Below, piece after piece: positions 2,852-38,089 of a stretch of DNA of 38,089 bases. The stretch is from IMG/VR virus record IMGVR_UViG_2917886563_000005; one strand, written 5' to 3'. The DNA comes from a virus. Its lineage: Duplodnaviria > Heunggongvirae > Uroviricota > Caudoviricetes. Numbering within the stretch: position 1 is the first letter of the stretch; each line of letters opens with the position of its first letter. The translations under genes and the position numbers were made by a program. The notes beneath the pieces were generated by a model. The model was not told where the DNA came from. It saw only the letters and a list, made by a program, of their open reading frames with translations, and made no database searches.

Positions 2852-5116
2852 TCATTTCGATGAGTTAATTGCCTCAATGATACGCTTCAGGATTTCATTA
2901 TTTCTGCGTTGTAATGCAGCCTCAAGGACTAAGGCCTCTTCATAACGGATCCCATAACGTGAGCCTGCCGGAGTGACCAGAATATCTTCATATTCTGGAT
3001 CTGCCTCTTCTTCATACTCTTCTTCGACTTCTTGAAACTCTGTCTCGATGTACTCTTCTTCTACATCTTCAACTACAGGGACGCTCACGAATGGATTTTG
3101 CGCAAATGGTGAACCATCTTCATTAAGAACAGGTATCATTTCCATTTTTGGAGCCTGATACTCTTCATTCACTACTCGTTTAATCCGTGTTCCGTCTTCC
3201 AGTACCTCATCCTTTAATACCTGACGACTCTCAGTAACCATCACTTGTTTGCTTACAATTCGAGTTTTAGTAACCTGCACAGGAACTGTTGTTATGCGAG
3301 TTTTAGTAACCATTACACCTTCGTTTGTCTGAACCTTAGTATATTGATCATCCCACTCGTCAAAGCAAAAGAATCCAAATCGGTGCACATCAAGCCCATG
3401 ACGTTCAAACGCCTCCTTTGCACGTTGAGCTATTACGCCAAAATGCCAACGAGCTCCGTCTTCTCCTTTTTCTTCTGTTCTGTCAAGATACTGAAATTGA
3501 ACGAAGTCAACCTCTGACCATGCGTCAAGTATTGTATCAGTGATTTCAAGAGGTGCAGTTTTAGCTCGCTCATCTGAAGTAACGGTAAAGGCTGTTTGAG
3601 TGAATCCACCAGACCACACACGACCAGCAGTTCCGACCGTGCTATTACTGTTCTGTGAGTATGGTGTAATAGATGAGTCTACTCTTACAACCCCATCCCC
3701 CTTTGGAGATAGCCTCAAATCAATATCTGTATCGCTTCCAGCAACGCCAACAGCAGGAGCATTAGATGCTGTCTGTGAGCGCATGGCTAGATAATTGGCA
3801 GGAACTGTAGGCCCAGACTCTATGGAAAATATAGGTAACCCAGACGATAATCGTGTAAATACTACGCCATTATCACTAAATAACATTCTGGTTGATCTGG
3901 TTGCATCCTCCAAAACAGAGAGTATTTCAGAAGTTTTCTGATTTGAATTGTTGTACCAAGTCATTGAGTGTCTATTACCAAAAGCAATTGCCACACCTTG
4001 ACCTGTTGATTCTCCGTCGGTTCCTTTAAGGCTATTGCTGCCAAATACGATGCCCTTCAGAAAGCGTGCTGTTTTCCCAGCAGTTTTGTCGTTAGCTATT
4101 ATTCCAATTGCTGCCGATGCAGCATTCAACACTTCTCCAGCTTGGGTTAATTCACCACCTGAGCCTAACCATAATGCGTCAGTCTGACCGTTGGGGAACA
4201 TTGAATTAGGATACAGTTCACGCTCATTCCCCCTGTTTGCTATATCAAGTTCAAGACCGTGACTTGCTCCGATTGTTCCTGCATTTCTTACAGTTGAACC
4301 ATAAAGTGCCCATGCGCTAGACCTAACACCTGATGAATCATCGTTGTAAGCCATCCCGGCTACGGCAAGAGCAGCATTACCCGGTTCACCATCTCCAGTA
4401 TGAGCAGATCCAAAAATTCCTATCCCATCTGGTGGGGCAATCCCAACATTTCTACAGTGTCGCTCTAAATAGAAATAAATATTTCCCCCTAGCCCTGCCA
4501 TCCATGGCACTTGCCTTAACCAATACCCACCAATGAATGTAACATCCATTTCCATTTCCCACGATGTAAGTGGGTCTGAAACAATATCCTGACTTAACAA
4601 ATAAGTGCCAGCAGGAATATAAATTTTGCGCCTTGTCGCATTAGCCGCAAGAAACGCTTCAGTAGAATCAACAACCCCTGTTGGGTCAGCACCTCCGGCA
4701 AAACCACTCCAAGTAACAGGCTTTGCTAATCCTCCGACAAATCCAGCTCCACCAGGCCCCTCCAGTTCAGATCGCAGTTGATCGGGGTCATACTTCAGCA
4801 CATTAGGAAAATAGAACTGCTGCGCACCATATGCATCATATACAGCCATAGAATGGCCTTGCACAGTTACGAACTTGGCAATCTGTCCGTTATATACCGG
4901 GTAACCAGCAGCGTTAATGATGATTGGTTGCGAAACAGGAAAGTGAGAGCCGTCTTCGTTCTCCACATAAACCTGAATCTGGTTTTCAGGATTTACCGGG
5001 TCAGTGTCAATTTTACCGATATAAATTTTGCCATTGGCTACGGCTTTAAAAGAACGCGCCATAGTGAAGAGTTGCGAAGGCATACTCACTACAACATTAG
5101 CTGTAATGTCTGTCAT
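2852..5116 (-). CDS. Tailspike: P22 gp9-like N-terminal head-binding domain, different central receptor-binding domain, C-terminal S74-type intramolecular chaperone and Glu-rich tail
   Basis: N-terminus [11 protein letters not shown]...[11 protein letters not shown]...VLKYDPDQ matches recalled P22 gp9 residues 1-~110; C-terminal SDERAK...WHFGVIAQ is characteristic of the autocleaving chaperone domain. Confidence 0.85.
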
Positions 5117-6471: not shown

Positions 6472-6756
6472 ATGGGCACACCACGATTTACCCCAGAGTT
6501 TAAGGAGGAAGCTGTCCGTCAGGTTACTGAACGGGGCTATTCCGTTGCCGATGTTTCTGAACGCCTCGGCGTATCGGCTCACAGCCTTTATAAGTGGGTC
6601 CGGTCAGTCAGACCGGATAACAGCGAGCATCAGGCGCAGGATTTACTGGATGCGCGGACGGAGATTCTCAGGCTTAAAGCGCAGCTTAAACGTACTGAGG
6701 AAGAACGGGATATTCTGAAAAAGGCAGCGCGGTACTTTGCAAGGGAGCCCGACTGA
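6472..6756 (+). CDS. IS3-family transposase OrfA (HTH, leucine zipper), 94 aa
   Basis: MGTPRFTPEFKEEAVRQV...LKKAARYFA is typical of IS3-family OrfA; AGGAGG RBS. Confidence 0.85.
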   Translation: MGTPRFTPEFKEEAVRQVTERGYSVADVSERLGVSAHSLYKWVRSVRPDNSEHQAQDLLDARTEILRLKAQLKRTEEERDILKKAARYFAREPD

Positions 6757-7607
6757 AGTACCGCTTCATCAACGATCACCGTGAAATCTGGTCGATCGTA
6801 ACAATGTGTCGGGTTCTGAAGGTCGCCCGTGCGGGATTTTACGTCTGGCTTCATCGCCCTGTTTCTGCCGGAGAAAAGGATAATCAGCGGTTGCTGGAGC
6901 TCATCCGCGATGCTTATGCACTGAGCGGCGGAGTCTACGGTTATCGCAGGGTTCACGGCGATCTTCGTGAAATCGGTGAAGTATGCAGCAGAAACCGTGT
7001 TGCCAGAATCATGAAGCGGAACAGGATACAGGCCGTACATGGCTATAAGGTCCCGCGTGGCGTCAGGGGAAGGCCGTCACTGATAGCTCCTAATCGCGTA
7101 CAGCGGGAATTTACGGTGGTAAAACCCAACCAGGTGTGGGTAACTGATATTACCTACATCCGCACCTGGCAGGGTTGGCTGTATCTGGCGGTGGTTATCG
7201 ATCTTTTTGCCCGTAATGTGGTGGGCTGGTCGATGAAACCAACGCTGTCGCGCGAGCTGGCACTGGATGCGCTGCTGATGGCAGTCTGGCGGCGTAAGCC
7301 TGCAGAAAACGTCATAGTGCACAGCGATCAGGGCAGTCAGTATGGCAGTGATGACTGGCAGCGGTTCTGCAGGGCCAACAATCTGGCGCCGAGCATGAGC
7401 CGTCGTGGCAACTGCTGGGATAATGCGGTGGCAGAATCGTTCTTCAGTTCACTGAAAAAAGAGCGCATCAGAAAGCGGATATATAAAACCCGGGACATGG
7501 CCCGGGCGGATATCTTCGATTACATTGAAGTGTTCTACAACCGGACCCGACGCCACAGTCATCTGGGTGGCGTCAGCCCGGAGGCCTTCGAAAAGGCCTC
7601 ACCGTGA
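6717..7607 (+). CDS. IS3-family transposase OrfB (DDE catalytic domain), made as an OrfAB fusion by -1 frameshift near GAAAAAG (6717..6723); first ATG of the OrfB frame is at 6804
   Basis: OrfB frame is open from the slippery run to 7607; conserved ...ITYIRTWQGWLYLAVVIDLF...HSDQGSQY...DNA... DDE-type motifs; stop lies within the right inverted repeat. Confidence 0.8.
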   Translation, partial: EKGSAVLCKGARLKYRFINDHREIWSIVTMCRVLKVARAGFYVWLHRPVSAGEKDNQRLLELIRDAYALSGGVYGYRRVHGDLREIGEVCSRNRVARIMKRNRIQAVHGYKVPRGVRGRPSLIAPNRVQREFTVVKPNQVWVTDITYIRTWQGWLYLAVVIDLFARNVVGWSMKPTLSRELALDALLMAVWRRKPAENVIVHSDQGSQYGSDDWQRFCRANNLAPSMSRRGNCWDNAVAESFFSSLKKERIRKRIYKTRDMARADIFDYIEVFYNRTRRHSHLGGVSPEAFEKASP

Positions 7608-25232: not shown

Positions 25233-25894
25233 GCGCCTTCTCCCTGTACCTGAATCAATGTGAGGTTTCCGCATAACACTGCGCCGGTATCGATATACAT
25301 TTGGTTGGCAAATTTAAGTGGTTTCACTGCTGGCGTATGACCAAAGATGAACGTGTCCGCGCCTTTGATTTCTTTCACGATCCCGTCTTGTGAGTTGCTG
25401 ATTCGTTCGCGGTTCCAGATTACCTGCTGATGATCAACTGGCTTTCCAAACTCGTATTCGTCACAAGGATAATCGGCGTGGCAGATGACATATTTTTTAT
25501 CTTTGCTCACCAGTTCGATGATTAACGGAAGTTCATCTGCTTTATGGGCAAGAGCTTTAGCCAGAATTTCTTTGTCGTAATCGAGATTAAAGAACCAGCC
25601 ACCGCCATTAAGCAGCCAGTGATTGACGTTTCCACGCTCTGATAAGCCATCAATCATCATGTGCTCATGGTTTCCACGTACAGCTCTGAACCAGGGGAAT
25701 GTGATTAATTCCAGGCATTCAACGTTCTCTGCGCCACGATCAACCAAATCGCCAACCGAGATAAGCAGGTCTTTTTTGGTGTCGAATCCAATCGTATCCA
25801 GTTTGTTCATCAGGTTCGTGTAGCATCCGTGCAGGTCGCCAGCTACCCAAATATTTCGGTATTTGCTGCCATCAATTCTTTCGTAGATATTCAT
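25229..25894 (-). CDS. ninI: Ser/Thr protein phosphatase NinI (lambda orf221)
   Basis: Metallophosphatase motifs GDLHG...GDLVDRG...GNHE; 221 aa. Confidence 0.85.
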
Positions 25895-26502
25895 GCTGCC
25901 CCACTTCTGCTGTTTCGCAGATTTTTAAGTTTCTGCTGATACTCCGCCTTGATGGCCCTGCACTCTTCGACAGTCCAGCGATGGCGGCTATGGTTTGATT
26001 CGATTTCGTCTACTGCTTCCTGCCCGATGCGGTTAATCAGTTCGACGCGATACGGAACGAGATTTCCGCTTTTATGCTGGTTGCACACCACGCATTGCTT
26101 GTGAATATTGCGTTCATCAAATCGGAGTTGAGGCGCCGCAGCAGTTGTCCGGTAATGCCCGGCATCCCACTGAGCAGACGTGAGCGTTCCGCACGAGATA
26201 CATGGTAAGTTGCGGTCTCTTTCTCTGATGAAGGCGTTTACGGCTTGTTGGGCTTGTTTAATCCAGTAACTGCGGGGCTTTAAGGCGAGTTTTCGAATCT
26301 TAATTTTATCTTTCTGTTTCTGCTCCTCTCGTCGTCGTTTCTTTTCTGCTGCTTTTTCCGCTTTTTCGCGTTCTTTGCTTCGTCGTTCGAGTGCTATCTT
26401 TGTTCCACACTCTGGAGAGCACCACCACTGATTAGCGAATGCAGGGTGAAACCATTCCCGACATTCTTCGTTTTTACATCGTCTTCGCGCTGGTTTAGCC
26501 AT
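25891..26502 (-). CDS. ninG: NinG/Rap-like recombination protein, 203 aa
   Basis: Cys-rich N-terminus and overall similarity to recalled lambda NinG. Confidence 0.8.
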
Positions 26503-26980: not shown

Positions 26981-27853
26981 TCATGCAGCTTCCCTCCCGA
27001 AGTCGAAATCAAGCTGCCCTCCAAATATTTCGCATGACTCAGAACAAGAGCCGGTATCGAATCTTTTAGCTCGTACCATGTCCTGATACAGGGCTTGATA
27101 ATCATTTTCTGAATACATTTTCGCGATACCGTCCAGCGACATTCTTCCTCGGTACATAATCTCCTTTGGCGTTTCCCGATGTCCGTCACGCACATGCGAT
27201 CCCGTGATGACCTCATTAAAAACACGCTGCAATCCCTCCTCATCTTTGCAGGCAAGTCCGATTTTTTGCGTTGATTTTTTAATGCAGAATATGCAGTTAC
27301 CGAGATGTTCCGGTATTTGCAAATCGAATGGTTGTTGCTTCCACCATGCGAGGATATCTTCCTTCTCAAAGTCTGACAGTTCAGCAAGATATCTGATTCC
27401 AGGCTTTGGCTTTAGCCGCTTCGGTTCATCAGCTCTGATGCCAATCCACGTGGTATAATTCCCTCGCCCGAAATGGTCATCACAGTATTTGGTGAAGGGA
27501 ACGAGTTTTAATCTGTCAGTGCAGAACGCGCCGCCGACGTATGGAGTGCCATATTTCTTTACCATATCGATAAATGGCTTCAGAACAGGCATTTTCGTCT
27601 GAATATCCTTTGGTTCCCATACCGTATAACCATTTGACTGTCCAGGCTCTGGGTTGATATCAACCTGCAATACAGTGAGCGGTATATCCCAGAACTTCAC
27701 AACTTCGCGGATAAACCGATATGTCATCGGGTGTTCACAACCTGTATCCATGAAAACGTAATGCACGTCTTCACCTGCCTGTCGCTTTTGCTCCATTAGC
27801 CAGAGCAAATATGCTGACGTCCTGCCACCGGAGAAACTAACGACATTTATCAT
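26981..27853 (-). CDS. ninC: NinC (PAPS-reductase-like family), 290 aa
   Basis: From [20 protein letters not shown]...; length equals lambda NinC. Confidence 0.8.
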
Positions 27854-28290
27854 GCAGCCTTGTCTCCCCATCTTGCTTTCCACTCCAGAGCCAGTCGCGC
27901 TTCGTCTGACCACTTAACGCCACGTTCTGTACCGAATGCCTGTATAAGCTCTAATAGCTCCGCAAATTCGCCTACCCGCATCCTGCTGGTTGACTGGCCT
28001 ATTACCACAAAGCCATTCCCGGCAAGGTTAGGAACAACGTCCTGCTGCTTTAAGGCTGCGGTAAACACACACTTCCAGCTTTCTGCATCCAGCCAGCGAC
28101 CATGCCATTCAACCTGACGCGAGACGTCACCTAAGCAGGCCCATAGCTTTCTGTTTTGGTCTAAGCTGCGGTTGCGTTCCTGAATGGTTACTACGATTGG
28201 CTTGGTTGGGTCTGGAAGGATTTGCTGTACTGCGTGAATAGCGTTTTGCTGATGTGCTGGAGATCGAATTTCAAAGGTTAGCTTTTTCAT
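27850..28290 (-). CDS. ninB: NinB/Orf recombination mediator, 146 aa
   Basis: From MKKLTFEIRSPAHQQNAIHAVQQILPDPTKPIVVTIQERNRSLDQNRKLWACLGD... matches recalled lambda NinB. Confidence 0.85.
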   Translation of the reverse strand: MKKLTFEIRSPAHQQNAIHAVQQILPDPTKPIVVTIQERNRSLDQNRKLWACLGDVSRQVEWHGRWLDAESWKCVFTAALKQQDVVPNLAGNGFVVIGQSTSRMRVGEFAELLELIQAFGTERGVKWSDEARLALEWKARWGDKAA

Positions 28291-28363
28291 GACTTCCCTC
28301 TCCCCCAAATAAAAAGGCCTGCGATTACCAGCAGGCCTGTTATTACCTCAGTGATGTAGATGG

Positions 28364-30740: not shown

Positions 30741-31019
30741 TCAGGCCTCAAAACTGTTGCAGCAGTCTTGAGGCTTTTCTTTTGTCAGCACCTTGGCTAC
30801 TTTCTTTGCCAGTTCCGCCAATTCCTCGTCTTCAACACCCCACTCCAGCACAGCCAGAAGCATGGCCATCTTTGGGATAAAGCTGTCTTTCCATCGCGAA
30901 ATTTGCGATTCATTAATCCCTAACGCGTCGGCAACCTTTCGCTGACCACGTACAGCAATTCGATTTAGGATGTTGCTTGTAATTGCATTCGCTTTCTTGC
31001 GAGTACTTGTAAGTTGCAT
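30741..31019 (-). CDS. c1: C1 protein (lambda CII homologue), 92 aa
   Basis: ...ESQISRWKDSFIPKMAMLLAVLEWGVEDEE... is the CII-family HTH and tetramerisation region; start MQLTST with AAGGA upstream. Confidence 0.8.
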   Translation of the reverse strand: MQLTSTRKKANAITSNILNRIAVRGQRKVADALGINESQISRWKDSFIPKMAMLLAVLEWGVEDEELAELAKKVAKVLTKEKPQDCCNSFEA

Positions 31020-31076
31020 ATGTAAGTATTTCCTTAACAAATAAGAAGTTATACGCACCAACTGATGCGCGTTGTA

Positions 31077-31121
31077 TTCCCGCATTTCGGCGGGAATGAG
31101 GACCATGACTGTTAAAGAGCA
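31077..31121 (-). promoter_or_regulatory. nutR: boxA (31110..31121) and boxB hairpin (31077..31096) between cro and c1
   Basis: Minus strand reads TGCTCTTTAACA then uucccgc-cgaaau-gcgggaa. Confidence 0.6.
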
Positions 31122-31127
31122 ATTTGC

Positions 31128-31313
31128 TTATGCCGCTTTGCGATAAGCACTTTCTTGATACTTCAGGGCGCCAGCTGTAACGACTTCCAGTCGATAGGCG
31201 TCTTTCTCTGGGATGACTTCCTTCCACTGAGAGACTGCTGCATCGCTAATGCCTAACGCTTTAGCTACCGCACGCTGGGTTCCGAAGTGGTCGATAACAT
31301 CTTTCTTGTACAT
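31128..31313 (-). CDS. cro: Cro repressor (P22-type), 61 aa
   Basis: MYKKDVIDHFGTQRAVAKALGISDAAVSQWKEVIPEKDAYRLEVVTAGALKYQ... matches recalled P22 Cro. Confidence 0.9.
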   Translation of the reverse strand: MYKKDVIDHFGTQRAVAKALGISDAAVSQWKEVIPEKDAYRLEVVTAGALKYQESAYRKAA

Positions 31314-31393: not shown

Positions 31394-32044
31394 ATGAATA
31401 CACAACTGATGGGTGAGCGTATTCGCGCTCGCAGAAAAGAACTCAAAATTAGGCAGGCTGCCCTTGGCAAGATGGTTGGCGTGTCTAATGTTGCTATTTC
31501 CCAATGGGAGCGTTCTGAAACTGAGCCCAATGGCGAAAACCTATTGGCCTTAGCCAAGGCTTTGCAGTGCTCCCCTGATTACTTGTTGAAAGGAGAAGAT
31601 AGTCTTTCAAACATTGCCTATCACAGCAGGCATGATCCAAGAGGTTCGTATCCTCTAATTAGTTGGGTAAGCGCAGGATGTTGGATGGAAGCTGTAGAGC
31701 CATATCATAAGCGTGCAATAGATAACTGGTACGATACAACCGTAGATTGTTCAGAAGATTCGTTTTGGCTGGACGTAAAGGGTGATTCGATGACGGCTCC
31801 AGCCGGTCTCAGCATCCCCGAAGGAATGATAATACTCGTCGATCCTGAAGTAGAACCTCGTAACGGGAAGCTTGTAGTGGCAAAGCTCGAAGGAGAAAAC
31901 GAGGCAACTTTCAAGAAGTTAGTTATTGATGCAGGCAGAAAGTTTCTAAAACCACTTAACCCACAATATCCGATGATTGAGATCAACGGGAACTGCAAAA
32001 TCATCGGTGTAGTTGTCGATGCAAAAATAGCAAACCTTCCATAA
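31394..32044 (+). CDS. c2: C2 repressor (P22-type, LexA-like autocleaving), 216 aa
   Basis: MNTQLMGERIRARRKELKIRQAALGKMVGVSNVAISQWERSETEPNGENLLALAKALQCSPDYLL... matches recalled P22 C2. Confidence 0.9.
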   Translation: MNTQLMGERIRARRKELKIRQAALGKMVGVSNVAISQWERSETEPNGENLLALAKALQCSPDYLLKGEDSLSNIAYHSRHDPRGSYPLISWVSAGCWMEAVEPYHKRAIDNWYDTTVDCSEDSFWLDVKGDSMTAPAGLSIPEGMIILVDPEVEPRNGKLVVAKLEGENEATFKKLVIDAGRKFLKPLNPQYPMIEINGNCKIIGVVVDAKIANLP

Positions 32045-32361: not shown

Positions 32362-32661
32362 ATGACAGTAGTCATTACATATCTGGCTGACGATAACGCC
32401 AGAAATCGCCGCAGAGCACGCAGACAGGCTCAACGTGAACAGGCAATGAATGAACAGCGACTGGCGCGGAAGATTGCGCTAAAGCTCTCTGGTTGCGTCA
32501 GAGCAGACAAAGCAGCATCACTTGGCAGCCTTCTCTGCAAGAAGGCAGATGAAGTCGAGCGTAAACAGAACCGTATTTACTACCGCAAGCCACGCAGCGA
32601 AATGGGTGTGACTTGTGTTGGTCGCCAGAAAATGAAATTAGGCAGCAAACCACTTATTTGA
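32362..32661 (+). CDS. N-like transcription antiterminator with arginine-rich motif, 99 aa
   Basis: N-terminal ARM DNARNRRRARRQAQREQ; first gene after PL/nutL; GGAGGT RBS; recalled as resembling phage 21 N. Confidence 0.7.
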   Translation: MTVVITYLADDNARNRRRARRQAQREQAMNEQRLARKIALKLSGCVRADKAASLGSLLCKKADEVERKQNRIYYRKPRSEMGVTCVGRQKMKLGSKPLI

Positions 32662-32669
32662 GGTGATAT

Positions 32670-32756
32670 ATGGAAGAAGAATTTGAAGAGTTCGAAGAGC
32701 ATCCGCAGGATGTGATGGAACAATACCAGGACTATCCGTATGACTACGACTATTGA
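32670..32756 (+). CDS. Tiny acidic 28-aa ORF (MEEEFEEFEEHPQDVMEQYQDYPYDYDY), not in the ORF track; speculative
   Basis: ATG 32670 preceded by GAGGTGA; overlaps ral start by 17 nt. Confidence 0.3.
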   Translation: MEEEFEEFEEHPQDVMEQYQDYPYDYDY

Positions 32757-32940
32757 TAAAAATCAATGGTGTGGACAATTCAAGCGATGCAATGGATGCA
32801 AGCTGCAATCGGAATGCATGGTTAAGCCTGAAGAAATGTTTCCTGTAATGGAGGATGGGAAATATGTCGATAAATGGGCAATACGAACGACGGCAATGAT
32901 TGCCAGAGAACTTGGTAAACAGAATAACAAGGCTGCCTGA
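32740..32940 (+). CDS. ral: Ral restriction-alleviation protein, 66 aa
   Basis: MTTTIDKNQWCGQFKRCNGCKLQSECMVKPEEMFPVMEDGKYVDKW... matches recalled lambda Ral. Confidence 0.8.
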   Translation: MTTTIDKNQWCGQFKRCNGCKLQSECMVKPEEMFPVMEDGKYVDKWAIRTTAMIARELGKQNNKAA

Positions 32941-33116: not shown

Positions 33117-33365
33117 ATGATAAAAACTGATTATCCTGCAGAGCTTAAACAAAAAGTAATAACAGCAATTAAATGCTCTTTTATCTCATGTCGTACAGAT
33201 GAAGAACGATATGTCGTTGAGTGTGCAATTGTCGAGTTTCTCACAGCGATGGAATTTACCGCAGCAGAATCAATAGACGTATTAAAGCAATCGGACGGAA
33301 ATGATATTGAAACAGATGATGTTATTGACCGACTAATAAAATCATTCGAAGAAGAAATAGAGTAG
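33117..33365 (+). CDS. Hypothetical acidic 82-aa protein
   Basis: ORF with GGAG upstream; no recognised domain. Confidence 0.45.
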   Translation: MIKTDYPAELKQKVITAIKCSFISCRTDEERYVVECAIVEFLTAMEFTAAESIDVLKQSDGNDIETDDVIDRLIKSFEEEIE

Positions 33366-33448
33366 CCGCCTGAGCGCGGCTTTACCGCATACCAATAATG
33401 CTTCACGAGAGGCATTTTCGTTATGCAATCAAATATAAGGAGTTACCC

Positions 33449-33583
33449 ATGATGCACTTTCAGCTCGCGGGTAGCGGCGTCATGTCCGCTTTCTACCCGC
33501 ACGAATCTGAATTATCACGCCGAGTTAAACAATTAATCAGAGCAGCAAAGAAACAACTGGAGGCGTTATGCGCAATGAAATAG
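33449..33583 (+). CDS. CIII-like small protein (44 aa from ATG 33449)
   Basis: AAGGAG 6 nt upstream; central helix ESELSRRVKQLIRAAKKQL resembles the lambda CIII core by recollection. Confidence 0.5.
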   Translation: MMHFQLAGSGVMSAFYPHESELSRRVKQLIRAAKKQLEALCAMK

Positions 33584-33720
33584 CCATTAATCACCAGATG
33601 CTTCGTGCTGCACAAAACAAAGCAGTAATAGCCAGATTTATTGGTGATTCCAAAATGTGGCTTGAAGCAAATAAAGCGATGAAATCAGCTATCAACCTTC
33701 CATGGTATCGCAGGAAATGA
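33568..33720 (+). CDS. Kil-like small protein (50 aa), not in the ORF track
   Basis: ...ARFIGDSKMWLEA... resembles the lambda Kil FIGD-KM motif as recalled; located between cIII-like gene and recombination genes. Confidence 0.4.
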   Translation: MRNEIAINHQMLRAAQNKAVIARFIGDSKMWLEANKAMKSAINLPWYRRK

Positions 33721-33824
33721 GTTTTACAGATAACTGGTCAGACGAAGAATTCATTCGTCAGATGAACAAAATGCTCAATCAGCACAAAGAACAGGAGAAA
33801 GATGATGATTCTGACTCTGAATGA
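33717..33824 (+). CDS. Possible 35-aa ORF (ATGA-coupled), speculative
   Basis: ATG overlaps the upstream stop; acidic C-terminus; overlaps the next gene by 23 nt. Confidence 0.25.
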   Translation: MSFTDNWSDEEFIRQMNKMLNQHKEQEKDDDSDSE

Positions 33825-34113
33825 TAAGCGTGAAATATCGCAAATAATCGCAAGTTTTACTGATGAAGATTACGAACGAATCAACAGTGAAGTTGATCGC
33901 CTCTGCAAACGTTGCGACCCAATAAGCGAAATGCTTCGCTCATATAAACCAGATGAACACACTAAGGACGCTATCGACTGGCTGGAAGATGATGACTGTA
34001 ACTATCAGGAAAAAGCCGCTGAATGGTTCTGGGATGCAATAACCGAAAGAGTTAAGGCTGAATATGCCTTCGCAATATTCAAACGCAGACACATTTATGG
34101 AGAAGCAGCATGA
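33802..34113 (+). CDS. Hypothetical 103-aa protein upstream of recT
   Basis: AGGAG RBS; translationally coupled to recT (ATGA overlap). Confidence 0.5.
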   Translation: MMILTLNDKREISQIIASFTDEDYERINSEVDRLCKRCDPISEMLRSYKPDEHTKDAIDWLEDDDCNYQEKAAEWFWDAITERVKAEYAFAIFKRRHIYGEAA

Positions 34114-35012
34114 GCAATATCGTTGAATTCGTTAAACAGCAGGAGCAGTTATTCTGCGGAGCATTGACTGAACAGACGGTGACATGGGCTAAGGAAAGCC
34201 AGTTTGCAATTCAGTATTTCCAGAAAAACGATTACCTGGCTAAAACAGCACTGGCAAACCCAACCAGCGCACAGAACGCCATCATCAATGTTGCGGCGAT
34301 CGGCATCACCTTAAACCCGGCCAGCAAACTTGCTTATCTAGTTCCGCGCGACGGCATGGTTTGCCTTGATATCAGCTATATGGGATTACTTCACCTTGCG
34401 CAATCGACAGGTTCAATTAAGTGGGGGCAATGCAAACTGGTGTACTCAAACGACACCTATGAATCAAATGGCCTTGATTCAGCACCAACCCACAAATACA
34501 ACGCATTTGGTGAGCGAGGCTCTATTGTTGGTGGTTATTGCACGGTTAAAACAGCAGATGGTGACTACCTGACTGAAGAAATGAGTCTGGCAGAAATTAA
34601 AGCAGTGGAAGCAACGAGCAAGGCAAAGAATGGACCGTGGAAAACATTCTGGGAAGAGATGGCGCGTAAAACAATAGTTAAACGCGCCAGCAAATACTGG
34701 CCTAAAGCCCAGCGACTGGATAATGCCATTCACCTGCTTAACGAAGATGAAGGTATGCATCAGGAACCAGTTATGCCGCAGAAATCAGAGGAAGATATCC
34801 ACGAAGATGAACGGAAACGCCAGCAGGAAATAACGGATAAAGCACAACTTCTTTGTGATGAAATGGCCCAGGCTGAAAACATGGATGATTTGAAGCGATA
34901 TTTTGCAGAAGCATATCGCCTGACATCTGGAATGAAATTGCAGCAGAACGTACAAGCCATTTACATAGAATGCAAAGCGAAACTGGAGGTTGCCAGTGAG
35001 CAAACTATATGA
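34110..35012 (+). CDS. recT: RecT-family single-strand annealing protein, 300 aa
   Basis: ...NGPWKTFWEEMARKTIVKRASKYWP... matches the conserved RecT motif. Confidence 0.8.
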   Translation: MSNIVEFVKQQEQLFCGALTEQTVTWAKESQFAIQYFQKNDYLAKTALANPTSAQNAIINVAAIGITLNPASKLAYLVPRDGMVCLDISYMGLLHLAQSTGSIKWGQCKLVYSNDTYESNGLDSAPTHKYNAFGERGSIVGGYCTVKTADGDYLTEEMSLAEIKAVEATSKAKNGPWKTFWEEMARKTIVKRASKYWPKAQRLDNAIHLLNEDEGMHQEPVMPQKSEEDIHEDERKRQQEITDKAQLLCDEMAQAENMDDLKRYFAEAYRLTSGMKLQQNVQAIYIECKAKLEVASEQTI

Positions 35013-35478
35013 AATAGCCAATGAATACGCAAAATTGATGGATTCAGATTTAGAGCCAGAGATGATTGCTGACACAATAGAAGGCATGGAAGGAGAATTT
35101 ACCGATAAAATAGAGCAACTTCTCGCCATTATTAAAAATGAATCTGGTTATGCTGAACGCCTCAAGGACGAGGCAAAGTCACTGAATGAACGAGCCGCAG
35201 TAATTCAAAATAAGATTGACAGCATTATGGCGTATATAGCGTCATCGCTTGAAATGGTTGGCAAGAAAAAGATTCGAGCAGGTATCCACCAGGTAACAAT
35301 CCGCAAACCGTCAGAAACTGTAGAAATCATCGACTCAAGCGCCCTTCCTCAAGAATACGTTGAGTTTGAAACGACAATTAAAGCCGACAAACTGGCAATC
35401 AAACACCAACTAAAAGCAGGAATAAATATCCCCGGCGCTCAACTCAAAGTTGGGAAACCTTCACTTCTTATCAAATAA
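34996..35478 (+). CDS. Hypothetical 160-aa coiled-coil protein downstream of recT; possibly Gp157-like
   Basis: GTG 34996 with GGAGG 6 nt upstream; family assignment is from memory only. Confidence 0.45.
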   Translation: MSKLYEIANEYAKLMDSDLEPEMIADTIEGMEGEFTDKIEQLLAIIKNESGYAERLKDEAKSLNERAAVIQNKIDSIMAYIASSLEMVGKKKIRAGIHQVTIRKPSETVEIIDSSALPQEYVEFETTIKADKLAIKHQLKAGINIPGAQLKVGKPSLLIK

Positions 35479-35489
35479 CGGTATCGCCT

Positions 35490-35804
35490 ATGAAAAAGAC
35501 TCCATGGGAGAAATGGGAAGTCGATTTCTTGCGCGAAGTAGCGGCGACAATGCCAGTTGAAGTTATCGCTGAAAAACTGGAAAGGACTGAAAAAGCAGTA
35601 ATGGCGAAAGCAACAAGGATTGGCGCTGACATTGTTAGCCGACTTCGTGGAAGACGATGGACAAGAGCCGAAGTATCACTTTTCGGTAAGTTCTCCGCAG
35701 AAGAAATAGCAATTGCAACCTGCCGCTCAATTTATTCAGTAAGGGCTATGCGATACAAGCTAAAAAAACTCGATGAAAAAAGAGCAGGCATACAAATAAA
35801 TTAA
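35490..35804 (+). CDS. Hypothetical 104-aa protein with two internal ~40-aa repeats (possible tandem HTH-like modules)
   Basis: Repeats WEKWEVDFLREV...IAEKLERTEKAV and RRWTRAEVSLFGKFSAEEIAIATCRSIYSV seen in translation. Confidence 0.45.
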   Translation: MKKTPWEKWEVDFLREVAATMPVEVIAEKLERTEKAVMAKATRIGADIVSRLRGRRWTRAEVSLFGKFSAEEIAIATCRSIYSVRAMRYKLKKLDEKRAGIQIN

Positions 35805-37888: not shown

Positions 37889-38089
37889 ATGCAACATGAA
37901 CTACAGCCTGATTCACTGGTTGATTTGAAATTCATCATGGCTGATACTGGCTTCGGTAAAACCTTCATCTATGACCGTATTAAGTCCGGCGACCTGCCAA
38001 AAGCCAAAGTTATCCACGGGCGAGCAAGATGGTTATATCGTGACCATTGTGAATTCAAAAATAAGCTCTTAAGCCGCGCCGATGGGTAA
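37889..38089 (+). CDS. xis: Excisionase-like DNA-binding protein (AlpA/Xis-type HTH), 66 aa
   Basis: ...FIYDRIKSGDLPKAKVIHGRARWLYRDH... resembles AlpA-type excisionases; GGAGA RBS; last gene before the expected integrase. Confidence 0.6.
   Translation: MQHELQPDSLVDLKFIMADTGFGKTFIYDRIKSGDLPKAKVIHGRARWLYRDHCEFKNKLLSRADG

Follow-up and report, generated by a model that had tools for sequence, protein, structure and literature searches.

A recT gene that stands beside no gene for an exonuclease raises the question of how a phage might use its annealase, and of what the small genes on either side contribute. We have analysed such a locus in a 38,089-nucleotide stretch of viral DNA (Caudoviricetes; IMG/VR record IMGVR_UViG_2917886563_000005), the whole of which is referred to here as the window. 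The preliminary description had treated the locus as an unexplained orphan. Sequence comparison instead points to an HK140-type recombination (Rec) module of a P22-like lambdoid prophage, in which a RecT annealase is coupled to a Sipho_Gp157 protein, and we put the probability of this reading at about 80%. The orphan label no longer fits: a putative Mu Gam-type homologue is encoded downstream, and the arrangement has been described for phage HK140 by Zheng, Casjens, Davidson, Amundsen & Smith (2025, Genome Res, PMC12315714; hereafter Zheng et al., 2025). The module is an ordinary, previously catalogued one and there is little new in it.

Organization of the module

The module is carried by a P22/lambda-like E. 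coli prophage with P22-like virion genes. It lies after cIII-kil in the early-left operon, for which we used the bounds N (32362) to xis (37889-38089), and its genes are ordered 103-aa gene, recT, 160-aa gene (Gp157/MuGam) and 104-aa gene. The features referred to below are:

33702..33824, + strand, 40-aa ORF, acidic and Arf-like at its N-terminus, lying between kil and the 103-aa gene
33802..34113, + strand, 103-aa acidic helical protein (phrog_3486); its gene overlaps the recT start as ATGA, which couples translation to recT
34110..35012, + strand, recT, RecT-family single-strand annealing protein (PF03837; SAP-4 type of Zheng et al.)
34985..34989, + strand, Shine-Dalgarno sequence GGAGG in the 3' end of recT, read from the sequence
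34996..35478, + strand, 160-aa Sipho_Gp157/Mu Gam-like, putative DNA-end-binding protein (PF05565, phrog_253)
35490..35804, + strand, 104-aa basic helix-turn-helix protein (phrog_323, as P22 Abc1 and Mu gp9)
27850..28308, - strand, ninB, Orf-family recombination mediator (PF05772 NinB, E 2.3e-54)
25891..26502, - strand, ninG, Rap-family junction-specific endonuclease (PF05766 NinG, E 2.5e-90)

The 160-aa gene had been described as coupled to recT, and we agree. Its likely start is GTG 34996, 6 nt 3' of GGAGG, which gives an overlap of 17 nt with recT; the homologue in HK140 is annotated with the identical start and the identical overlap. An in-frame TTG upstream (34990) was rejected as the start and is unlikely to serve as one because the Shine-Dalgarno sequence directly adjoins it. 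Outside the Rec module, the ninB gene of the early-right nin region supplies another recombination function of the phage, and the ninG product is not a resection exonuclease. No module protein matched a defence system in PADLOC.

The RecT annealase

Assignment of the 300-aa recT product to the RecT family is borne out, as it passes the curated cut-offs of both PF03837 (Pfam; 116.4 bits, cut-off 24, E 1.5e-33) and TIGR00616 (76.8 bits, cut-off 52.65). It also matches phrog_148 (E 1.2e-91), and the solved Listeria RecT structure 7UB2 matches residues 34-204 (E 6.9e-5). The protein is predicted to anneal single strands. Against the Rac RecT equivalog model NF007351 it scores 91.4 bits, below the cut-off of 296, and by its sequence it is of another type (SAP-4 of PMC12315714) than Rac RecT.

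The core of the protein (approximately residues 1-217) is 57% identical to that of phi80 Rec, and beyond it lies a distinct C-terminal tail of some 83 aa. In this tail, identity to Exo-linked RecTs is about 17%, whereas among Gp157-linked RecTs it is 38-94% (4 vs 3 sequences). This suggests that the tail is specific to Gp157-linked RecTs and that RecT and Gp157 may be in direct contact; as a partner-docking domain, the tail may physically couple RecT to end-bound Gp157. The same pattern could be explained simply by a recombination breakpoint inside recT.

Absence of a phage exonuclease

P22, which has Erf and Abc1/Abc2 and no exonuclease, is the classic nuclease-less case. The present locus had likewise been said to lack a RecE or lambda-Exo partner, and our searches support this. 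We scanned nearly all ORFs of the early-left operon from N to xis, those of the nin region and, in the rest of the window, the larger ORFs, some structural and lysis ORFs excepted, and no exonuclease domain was found in them using Pfam or PHROGs. In particular, the scanned ORFs in or beside the module gave no lambda Exo/YqaJ, RecE/DUF3799, DnaQ-like or HNH nuclease. As a positive control, the neighbour gene in SEN22 was detected as DUF3799/exonuclease VIII. Nor did the scanned early-left ORFs match lambda Gam or phi80 GamL (Pfam, PHROGs), or the scanned window proteins P22 Abc2 (phrog_656).

A RecT without a phage exonuclease is a common state, and for a recT gene of a lambdoid phage it is a normal, catalogued condition: in the survey of Zheng et al. 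(2025), 84/246 Rec modules are without a nuclease. The same study reports that phages with an anti-RecBCD gene are mostly without Chi; there are no Chi sites in the phage part of the window.

The 160-aa protein and its probable relationship to Mu Gam

The 160-aa protein is, as had been noted, too small for a nuclease. It matches Sipho_Gp157 (PF05565) over the full length of the profile (positions 1-162 of 162; 125.5 bits, cut-off 28.6, E 2.7e-36), and this domain is present in all listed homologues and in 144/144 alignment representatives. The family is large (12,322 cluster representatives with E no higher than 0.001), and we found no biochemical study of any of its members in the literature. 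The protein also matches phrog_253, 'Mu Gam-like end protection' (E 8.6e-53), and the 104-aa protein falls in phrog_323 with Abc1. This runs counter to the earlier remark that nothing like Gam or Abc was evident. Profile searches of the neighbouring genes leave standing the half of the argument that concerns the exonuclease, as none was found, and overturn the other half, as the 160-aa protein is a Mu Gam-type (Sipho_Gp157) homologue. The preliminary description had itself listed such a finding as one that would refute it, and on those terms the puzzle is solved.

The relationship to Mu Gam itself is more distant. Against Phage_Mu_Gam (PF07352) the protein scores 15.5 bits, below the cut-off of 28.3 (E 0.018), in an alignment that is collinear over positions 33-147 of 149. 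When diverse Gp157 members were searched, 25/144 matched PF07352 (best E 6.1e-7), but RasGAP_C was also matched in 25 members, showing that coiled-coil composition yields spurious cross-hits of similar strength. With a Mu Gam HMM, 11 Gp157 members and no reversed controls scored at least 10 bits. Alignment of Gp157 with Mu Gam plus 2P2U by hhalign gave E 4.9e-5 over 126 collinear columns with a shallow Mu Gam profile and a probability of only 68%; these figures required inclusion of the 2P2U fragment and a less strict alignment setting, and the shallow-profile runs were weak. HHpred analysis of another Gp157 member has given 99.4% to 2P2U (PMC10530707). Searches of PDB sequences with the single 160-aa protein and with the 144-sequence profile returned coiled-coil noise only, the profile (HMM) search not reaching 2P2U. 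Our own sequence tests are supportive of Gp157 being a remote Mu Gam homologue, but not decisive alone.

The two proteins are also alike in size (160 aa here, 174 aa in Mu) and in predicted architecture. The AF2 model of the 160-aa protein has a long helix (residues 21-88) followed by a beta hairpin, which resembles the long N-terminal helix and small C-terminal beta domain of Mu Gam (PF07352; homologue structure 2P2U), which is grouped with Ku in a Mu Gam/Ku superfamily. Additionally, a phrog_323 helix-turn-helix gene adjoins in both cases, Mu gp9 lying directly upstream of Mu gam. In contrast, the 160-aa protein belongs to another Pfam family (PF05565) and another PHROG (phrog_253, whereas Mu Gam itself falls in phrog_491), and Mu is without a RecT partner.

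By analogy with Mu Gam, we infer that the 160-aa protein is a putative end binder that would shield linear phage DNA from RecBCD, and the overlapping small gene would then be a Mu Gam-type anti-RecBCD component of the module. The earlier proposal that a small neighbour deals with host nucleases is probably correct in this form. If the 160-aa gene does encode a Mu Gam-like end protector, the 'missing' RecBCD antagonist is therefore present and only the phage exonuclease is absent.

Related modules

Phages HK140 and mEpX1 carry the trio of 103-aa gene, recT and gp157 at approximately 92% identity. This trio occurs in 14 phage records (91-98% identity), some of them already annotated 'Mu Gam-like end protection', and in 302/5,426 complete E. 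coli genomes, where the annotation is 'siphovirus Gp157 family protein'. A search with an alignment of close Gp157 relatives returned loci of 96-99% identity only. Among IMG/VR relatives, recT, gp157 and the 104-aa gene are together in 80/80. More distant Gp157 genes adjoin RecT, Sak, Sak4+DUF669 or SSB, and no exonuclease is found among their annotated neighbours. The slot beside erf/sak4 in Firmicutes is taken by Mu gam in some cases and by sipho_gp157 in others.

According to Zheng et al. (2025), the HK140 module consists of a SAP-4/RecT-type annealase and MuGam with no phage nuclease and no SSB. The window has four genes in common order with HK140 and mEpX1 (approximately 92% nucleotide identity over 1,681 bases), with equal overlaps and with nuclease and SSB likewise absent. 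It differs from them by allelic divergence only (the RecT cores are 86% identical), although the neighbouring early-left accessory genes vary in the usual mosaic way.

The arf-erf-abc1-abc2 module of P22 is similar in its position after cIII-kil and in the virion genes that accompany it. It too pairs no phage exonuclease with its annealase, an Abc1-family gene follows, and the window may also share an Arf-like ORF ahead of the annealase gene. However, the annealase is RecT here and Erf in P22, and the window has a putative MuGam-type end binder and no Abc2 homologue, whereas Abc2 of P22 binds RecC. The modules of phi80 (gamL-rec-exo), Cronobacter phage ENT47670 and Erwinia phage Midgardsormr38 share a SAP-4 RecT (cores 50-59% identical) with a small gene that abuts the recT start. 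In these phages a lambda-Exo-like nuclease lies downstream where Gp157 stands here, the C-terminal tails of their RecTs bear no relation to that of the window RecT, and the 103-aa protein shows no similarity to the GamL of phi80. Lambda Red (gam-bet-exo) and Rac RecET are likewise early-left-operon modules built around a Rad52-superfamily annealase, but the window has neither Exo/RecE nor the lambda Gam DNA mimic, and its RecT is not the Rac equivalog.

The small flanking genes

The 103-aa protein (pI 4.65) had been called unassigned, and it has no match in Pfam or NCBIfam; it belongs to phrog_3486 (E 1.7e-59), a family without an assigned function. Homologues in ENT47670 (49% identity) and Midgardsormr38 (39%) both adjoin a RecT gene. 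In phages of E. coli, Cronobacter and Erwinia the gene stays directly 5' of SAP-4 recT at 39-100% protein identity, and the partner downstream of the pair varies between Gp157 and a lambda-Exo-like nuclease. The phrog_3486 gene consistently leads RecT modules, in the slot of gam in lambda and gamL in phi80. Comparison of the 103-aa family by hhalign showed no similarity to lambda Gam or phi80 GamL (E 0.08-0.31) or to P22 Abc1, Abc2 (E 0.12) or Arf. A PDB sequence search with the protein was negative. Using its AF2 model (pLDDT 76.9, one model only), the best Foldseek match in the PDB had E 3.0; matches to T4 UvsY were non-significant and no Gam structure was returned. The 103-aa protein might be a novel antagonist of RecBCD or a mimic of DNA; alternatively, it might serve RecT as a cofactor, much as an analogue of P22 Arf. 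That it is an unrecognised component of RecT-type Rec modules, with the related idea that the RecT tail is a swappable docking domain, is a tentative suggestion that we think rather doubtful.

The 104-aa protein matches phrog_323 with E 1.3e-20, as do P22 Abc1 (1.3e-23) and Mu gp9 (5.2e-29). It is similar to Mu gp9 by BLASTP (E 5e-5) and has no pairwise BLASTP match to P22 Abc1. The phrog_323 profile is a repeat-containing helix-turn-helix model and the common match therefore shows family-level relatedness only. This Abc1-family gene and the 103-aa leader gene are inexpensive starting points in a search for other proteins that modulate how the host processes DNA ends.

The 40-aa ORF (pI 4.2) matches phrog_17766 (E 7.6e-16) and, over residues 6-25, phrog_2123 'recombinase' (E 5.3e-10). 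A BLASTP comparison with P22 Arf gave E 0.004 over 21 aa, and the ORF sits after kil, as does arf in P22. It is possibly an Arf-type accessory gene, this assignment being a weak one.

Proposed mechanism and alternatives

By analogy with the biology of Mu Gam and Ku, a Gp157 dimer would bind the double-stranded ends of the linear genome that headful packaging yields, as well as those of rolling-circle tails, and would block RecBCD there. RecT would anneal complementary single strands, which would circularise the terminally redundant genome and also drive recombination-dependent replication, with NinB and NinG assisting. Host functions (e.g. RecQ/RecJ or gaps at replication forks) would provide the single-stranded DNA in place of a phage exonuclease. 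If the ends were capped against all exonucleases, however, the source of single strands for RecT would be left without explanation.

Gp157 might instead be an annealase partner, either a loader or mediator for RecT, Erf, Sak and Sak4 or an SSB-like helper, its resemblance to Mu Gam being one of architecture only (a long coiled coil and a small beta domain). We consider this unlikely. It would account for Gp157 always lying beside a recombinase of some family and for the co-variation of the RecT tail with Gp157; moreover, the sequences give moderate evidence of homology to Mu Gam and the fold searches are uninformative. Against it, the collinear, near full-length profile alignments cover the C-terminal domain, which is not coiled coil, the Mu Gam signal is above the reversed-sequence control, and the published HHpred result links a family member to the Gam structure 2P2U. 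Genuine mu gam genes also occupy the equivalent slot in Firmicute phages, and end protection and a role as annealase partner are not mutually exclusive. Hijacking of host RecBCD as the exonuclease, with the 103-aa, 40-aa or 104-aa protein as its modifier, is less probable again. P22-type phages without an exonuclease are proposed to co-opt RecBCD in this way via Abc2 (PMC9836394), and the phrog_323 match common to the 104-aa protein and Abc1, the coupling of the 103-aa gene to recT in the gam/gamL slot and the acidity of both small upstream proteins are in keeping with it. However, no scanned window protein matches Abc2 or lambda Gam/GamL, and even Abc1 has no known molecular role. ENT47670 and Midgardsormr38 encode a phage exonuclease as well as the 103-aa homologue, so the 103-aa protein is no exonuclease substitute, and a MuGam-type end cap would block the loading of RecBCD rather than exploit it.

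It is hardly credible that the module is a decayed remnant in which the exonuclease gene has been lost and recombination no longer works. An IS3-family element is inserted elsewhere in the prophage (6472-7607), and one- and two-gene modules are 'somewhat suspect' according to Zheng et al. (2025; PMC12315714), but the plaque-forming phages HK140, mEpX1, Kapi1 and Gally carry the equal arrangement. The ORFs are intact and overlapping, with 91-99% identity across the 302 genomes and the 80/80 viral contigs, and nuclease-less pairs of Gp157 and a recombinase recur in unrelated phages. Pairs of recT and gp157 might provide a compact means of recombineering with double-stranded DNA in recBCD+ hosts.

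Prophage setting

An E. coli prophage of the P22-like lambdoid type makes up the window. Among its virion genes are those for a P22-type portal, for the large terminase and for a tailspike head-binding domain, and the minus-strand early-right genes are O, a DnaB-type helicase, NinB, NinD, NinF, NinG, a phosphatase and Q. The plus-strand order after kil is a 40-aa ORF, a 103-aa gene, recT, a 160-aa gene, a 104-aa gene, DUF5405, DUF2737-like and Ead/Ea22-DUF551 genes, and more small genes. There are two tandem candidate anti-restriction genes in the early-left operon, ral and the phrog_14587 gene at 33117-33365.

Immunity region, early-left operon and homologues of the 103-aa gene in comparison loci
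30741-31106, strand opposite to cI: cII-like ORF
31128-31313, strand opposite to cI: cro-like ORF
31394-32044: cI, immunity region
32362-32661, +: N
32740-32940, +: ral
33117-33365, +: 82-aa anti-restriction-like gene (phrog_14587 'anti-restriction protein', 2.2e-48)
within 33398-33583, +: cIII
33568-33720, +: kil
33702-33824, +: 40-aa acidic ORF
33802-34113, +: 103-aa gene, phrog_3486 (pI 4.65; helical)
34110-35012, +: recT, 300 aa (Pfam RecT 116.4 bits, cut-off 24; TIGR00616 76.8, cut-off 52.65)
34996-35478, +: 160-aa gene (Gp157)
35490-35804, +: 104-aa HTH gene, phrog_323
37889-38089, +: xis, TorI/AlpA-type, last gene of the operon
L085 3501-3809: Cronobacter phage ENT47670, RecT+Exo module
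L086 3501-3803: Erwinia phage Midgardsormr38, RecT+Exo module
L002 5003-5314: phage SEN22, RecE-like+SSB-like module

recT lacks a recognisable partner exonuclease

The RecT protein scores above both family cut-offs and resembles the solved Listeria RecT (7UB2). The Rac RecT equivalog was rejected as its identity (91 bits against a cut-off of 296). The stop of the 103-aa ORF overlaps the recT start as ATGA. Pfam and PHROGs showed no nuclease domain in any ORF scanned; these were almost every ORF of the early-left operon, those of the nin region and, in the rest of the window, the larger ones. The same scan detected the RecE-like gene of SEN22, used as a positive control, as DUF3799/exonuclease VIII. 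On both the anatomy and the missing recognisable exonuclease the preliminary description is thus confirmed. It had also held that no Gam-like protein was evident and that the 160-aa protein was unassigned; neither statement stands. A Gam homologue in a neighbouring ORF, named beforehand as the finding that would speak against it, is what profile searches returned for the 160-aa protein.

The 160-aa protein and Mu Gam

The ORF finder puts the start of this gene at TTG 34990, a candidate rejected because no spacer separates it from GGAGG (34985-34989). With GTG 34996, in the same frame and with 6 nt between it and GGAGG, the product is 160 aa, the length originally reported, and the overlap with recT is 17 nt; the same start and overlap are annotated in HK140. 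The protein matches PF05565 (Sipho_Gp157) over its full length (E 2.7e-36, profile 1-162 of 162) and falls in phrog_253, named "Mu Gam-like end protection" in PHROGs (E 8.6e-53). RefSeq names it "siphovirus Gp157 family protein", and the Mu Gam-like label is already on it in the RefSeq phage records HK140 and mEpX1 and in the Gally, Louie and Dewey records.

The protein belongs to PF05565 and not to PF07352 (Phage_Mu_Gam), against which it scores 15.5 bits, below the 28.3 threshold, in a match collinear over nearly the whole model. An exhaustive profile search gave 12,322 Sipho_Gp157 family representatives. PF07352 cross-matches occur in 25 of 144 diverse representatives (best 6.1e-7) and are weak taken alone because coiled-coil families cross-match at similar rates. 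Profile-profile alignment of Gp157 with Mu Gam gave E values of 6.6e-4, 2.9e-4 and 4.9e-5 as the Mu Gam side was progressively deepened, the last on adding the solved Mu Gam homologue 2P2U (probability 68%; the 126 collinear columns take in the non-helical C-terminal domain as well). Additionally, 11 Gp157 representatives reached at least 10 bits with the Mu Gam HMM (best 24.6, collinear) and none of the reversed-sequence controls did. HHpred of another Sipho_Gp157 protein has given 99.4% probability to 2P2U (PMC10530707). The AF2 monomer of the 160-aa protein (pLDDT 78.7) has a helix at 21-88 and then a hairpin, and its fold matches were generic helical ones only. Taken together, these results make it very probable that Gp157 and Mu Gam are remote homologues; DNA-end binding would be expected of Gp157 by analogy.

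A known and common module

The gene content, coupling and conservation of the module are directly observed. There are 14 phage records (EC.P3, E212, HK140, mEpX1, Gally, Kapi1 and others) that match a 1,681-base stretch at 91-98% identity, and 302 of 5,426 complete E. coli genomes contain it; in IMG/VR, 80 of 80 relatives have recT together with the 160-aa and 104-aa genes. In a survey of the Rec modules (recombination gene sets) of 325 lambdoid phages, Zheng, Casjens, Davidson, Amundsen and Smith (Genome Res 2025, PMC12315714) list HK140 as SAP (annealase) sequence type 4 "with no phage-encoded nuclease", lacking an SSB and having MuGam as its anti-RecBCD. A nuclease is absent from 84 of their 246 Enterobacteriales modules, and 46 phages make up the P22 functional type, whose only components are an annealase and an anti-RecBCD function. 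Beside erf or sak4 in phages of Firmicutes, one and the same slot is taken by Mu gam and sipho_gp157 genes (PMC8093625). Sampled distant Gp157 genes neighbour RecT, Sak (PF06378), Sak4 (AAA_24) with DUF669, or SSB, with no exonuclease among the annotated neighbours. The recT-gp157 arrangement is thus already known.

Chi is mostly missing from phages with an anti-RecBCD gene (PMC12315714). The sole Chi (GCTGGTGG) of the 38-kb window is at 179-186, inside the first ORF (PEBP-family, 1-477); the phage genes are free of Chi, which is consistent with this Chi-poor class.

Possible mechanism

A Gp157 dimer would cap double-stranded ends, both on the terminally redundant genome packaged by the headful and on rolling-circle tails, and might thereby shut out RecBCD as Mu Gam does. 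RecT would anneal single strands, supplied by host enzymes or replication gaps, leading to circularisation and recombination-dependent replication, with NinB and NinG as possible helpers. An annealase that works without a phage exonuclease has its precedent in P22, where Abc2 is proposed as the means of co-opting RecBCD (PMC9836394). PHROGs comparison gave no Abc2 homologue among the window proteins scanned.

When Gp157-linked and Exo-linked genes are compared, the RecT core shows 50-59% identity, whereas in a small sample the last ~83 residues (~218-300; window 34761-35012) have ~17% identity across the two sets and 38-94% among Gp157-linked RecTs. This tail may be a partner-specific docking domain, but the split could also reflect linkage or a mosaic breakpoint inside recT.

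Small neighbouring genes

Homologues of the 103-aa protein abut SAP-4 recT in ENT47670 (49% identity) and Midgardsormr38 (39%), where a lambda-Exo-like nuclease follows recT; in the window Gp157 does. The SEN22 copy, 96% identical, stands ahead of the RecE-like nuclease, apparently through a recent module swap. In all four the phrog_3486 gene lies immediately before the first Rec-module gene and overlaps it, in the slot held by gamL in phi80 and gam in lambda. The protein has no similarity to Gam, GamL, Abc1, Abc2 or Arf. It is unassigned yet not random, and this conserved gene upstream of recT is a modest remaining lead.

Phrog_323 is common to the 104-aa protein downstream of Gp157, P22 Abc1 (L004 26970-27254) and Mu gp9 (L003 5482-5781), the last immediately upstream of Mu gam. 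This suggests that the HTH family is recurrently paired with end-protection or anti-RecBCD genes. The N-terminus of the 40-aa ORF, between kil and the 103-aa gene, resembles P22 Arf (BLASTP E 0.004; phrog_2123 'recombinase' 5e-10), and the database variant P0145 is a fusion of this ORF with the 103-aa protein's C-terminal half.

Other features of the prophage

A 581-aa family-2/92 glycosyltransferase (1041-2786), probably a moron that modifies the O antigen, lies in a 33-34% GC island adjoining the tailspike gene (2852-5116) and matches no PHROG. An IS3-family insertion sequence at 6472-7607 (HTH_Tnp_1 in orfA, an rve integrase core in orfB) has the tailspike region on one side and the ejection-protein genes on the other. 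Finally, a 310-aa PAPS-reductase-domain protein in the nin region (26981-27913, minus strand) weakly matches the defence components SspD (1.3e-14) and BrxP, and may have a DNA-modification or counter-defence role.
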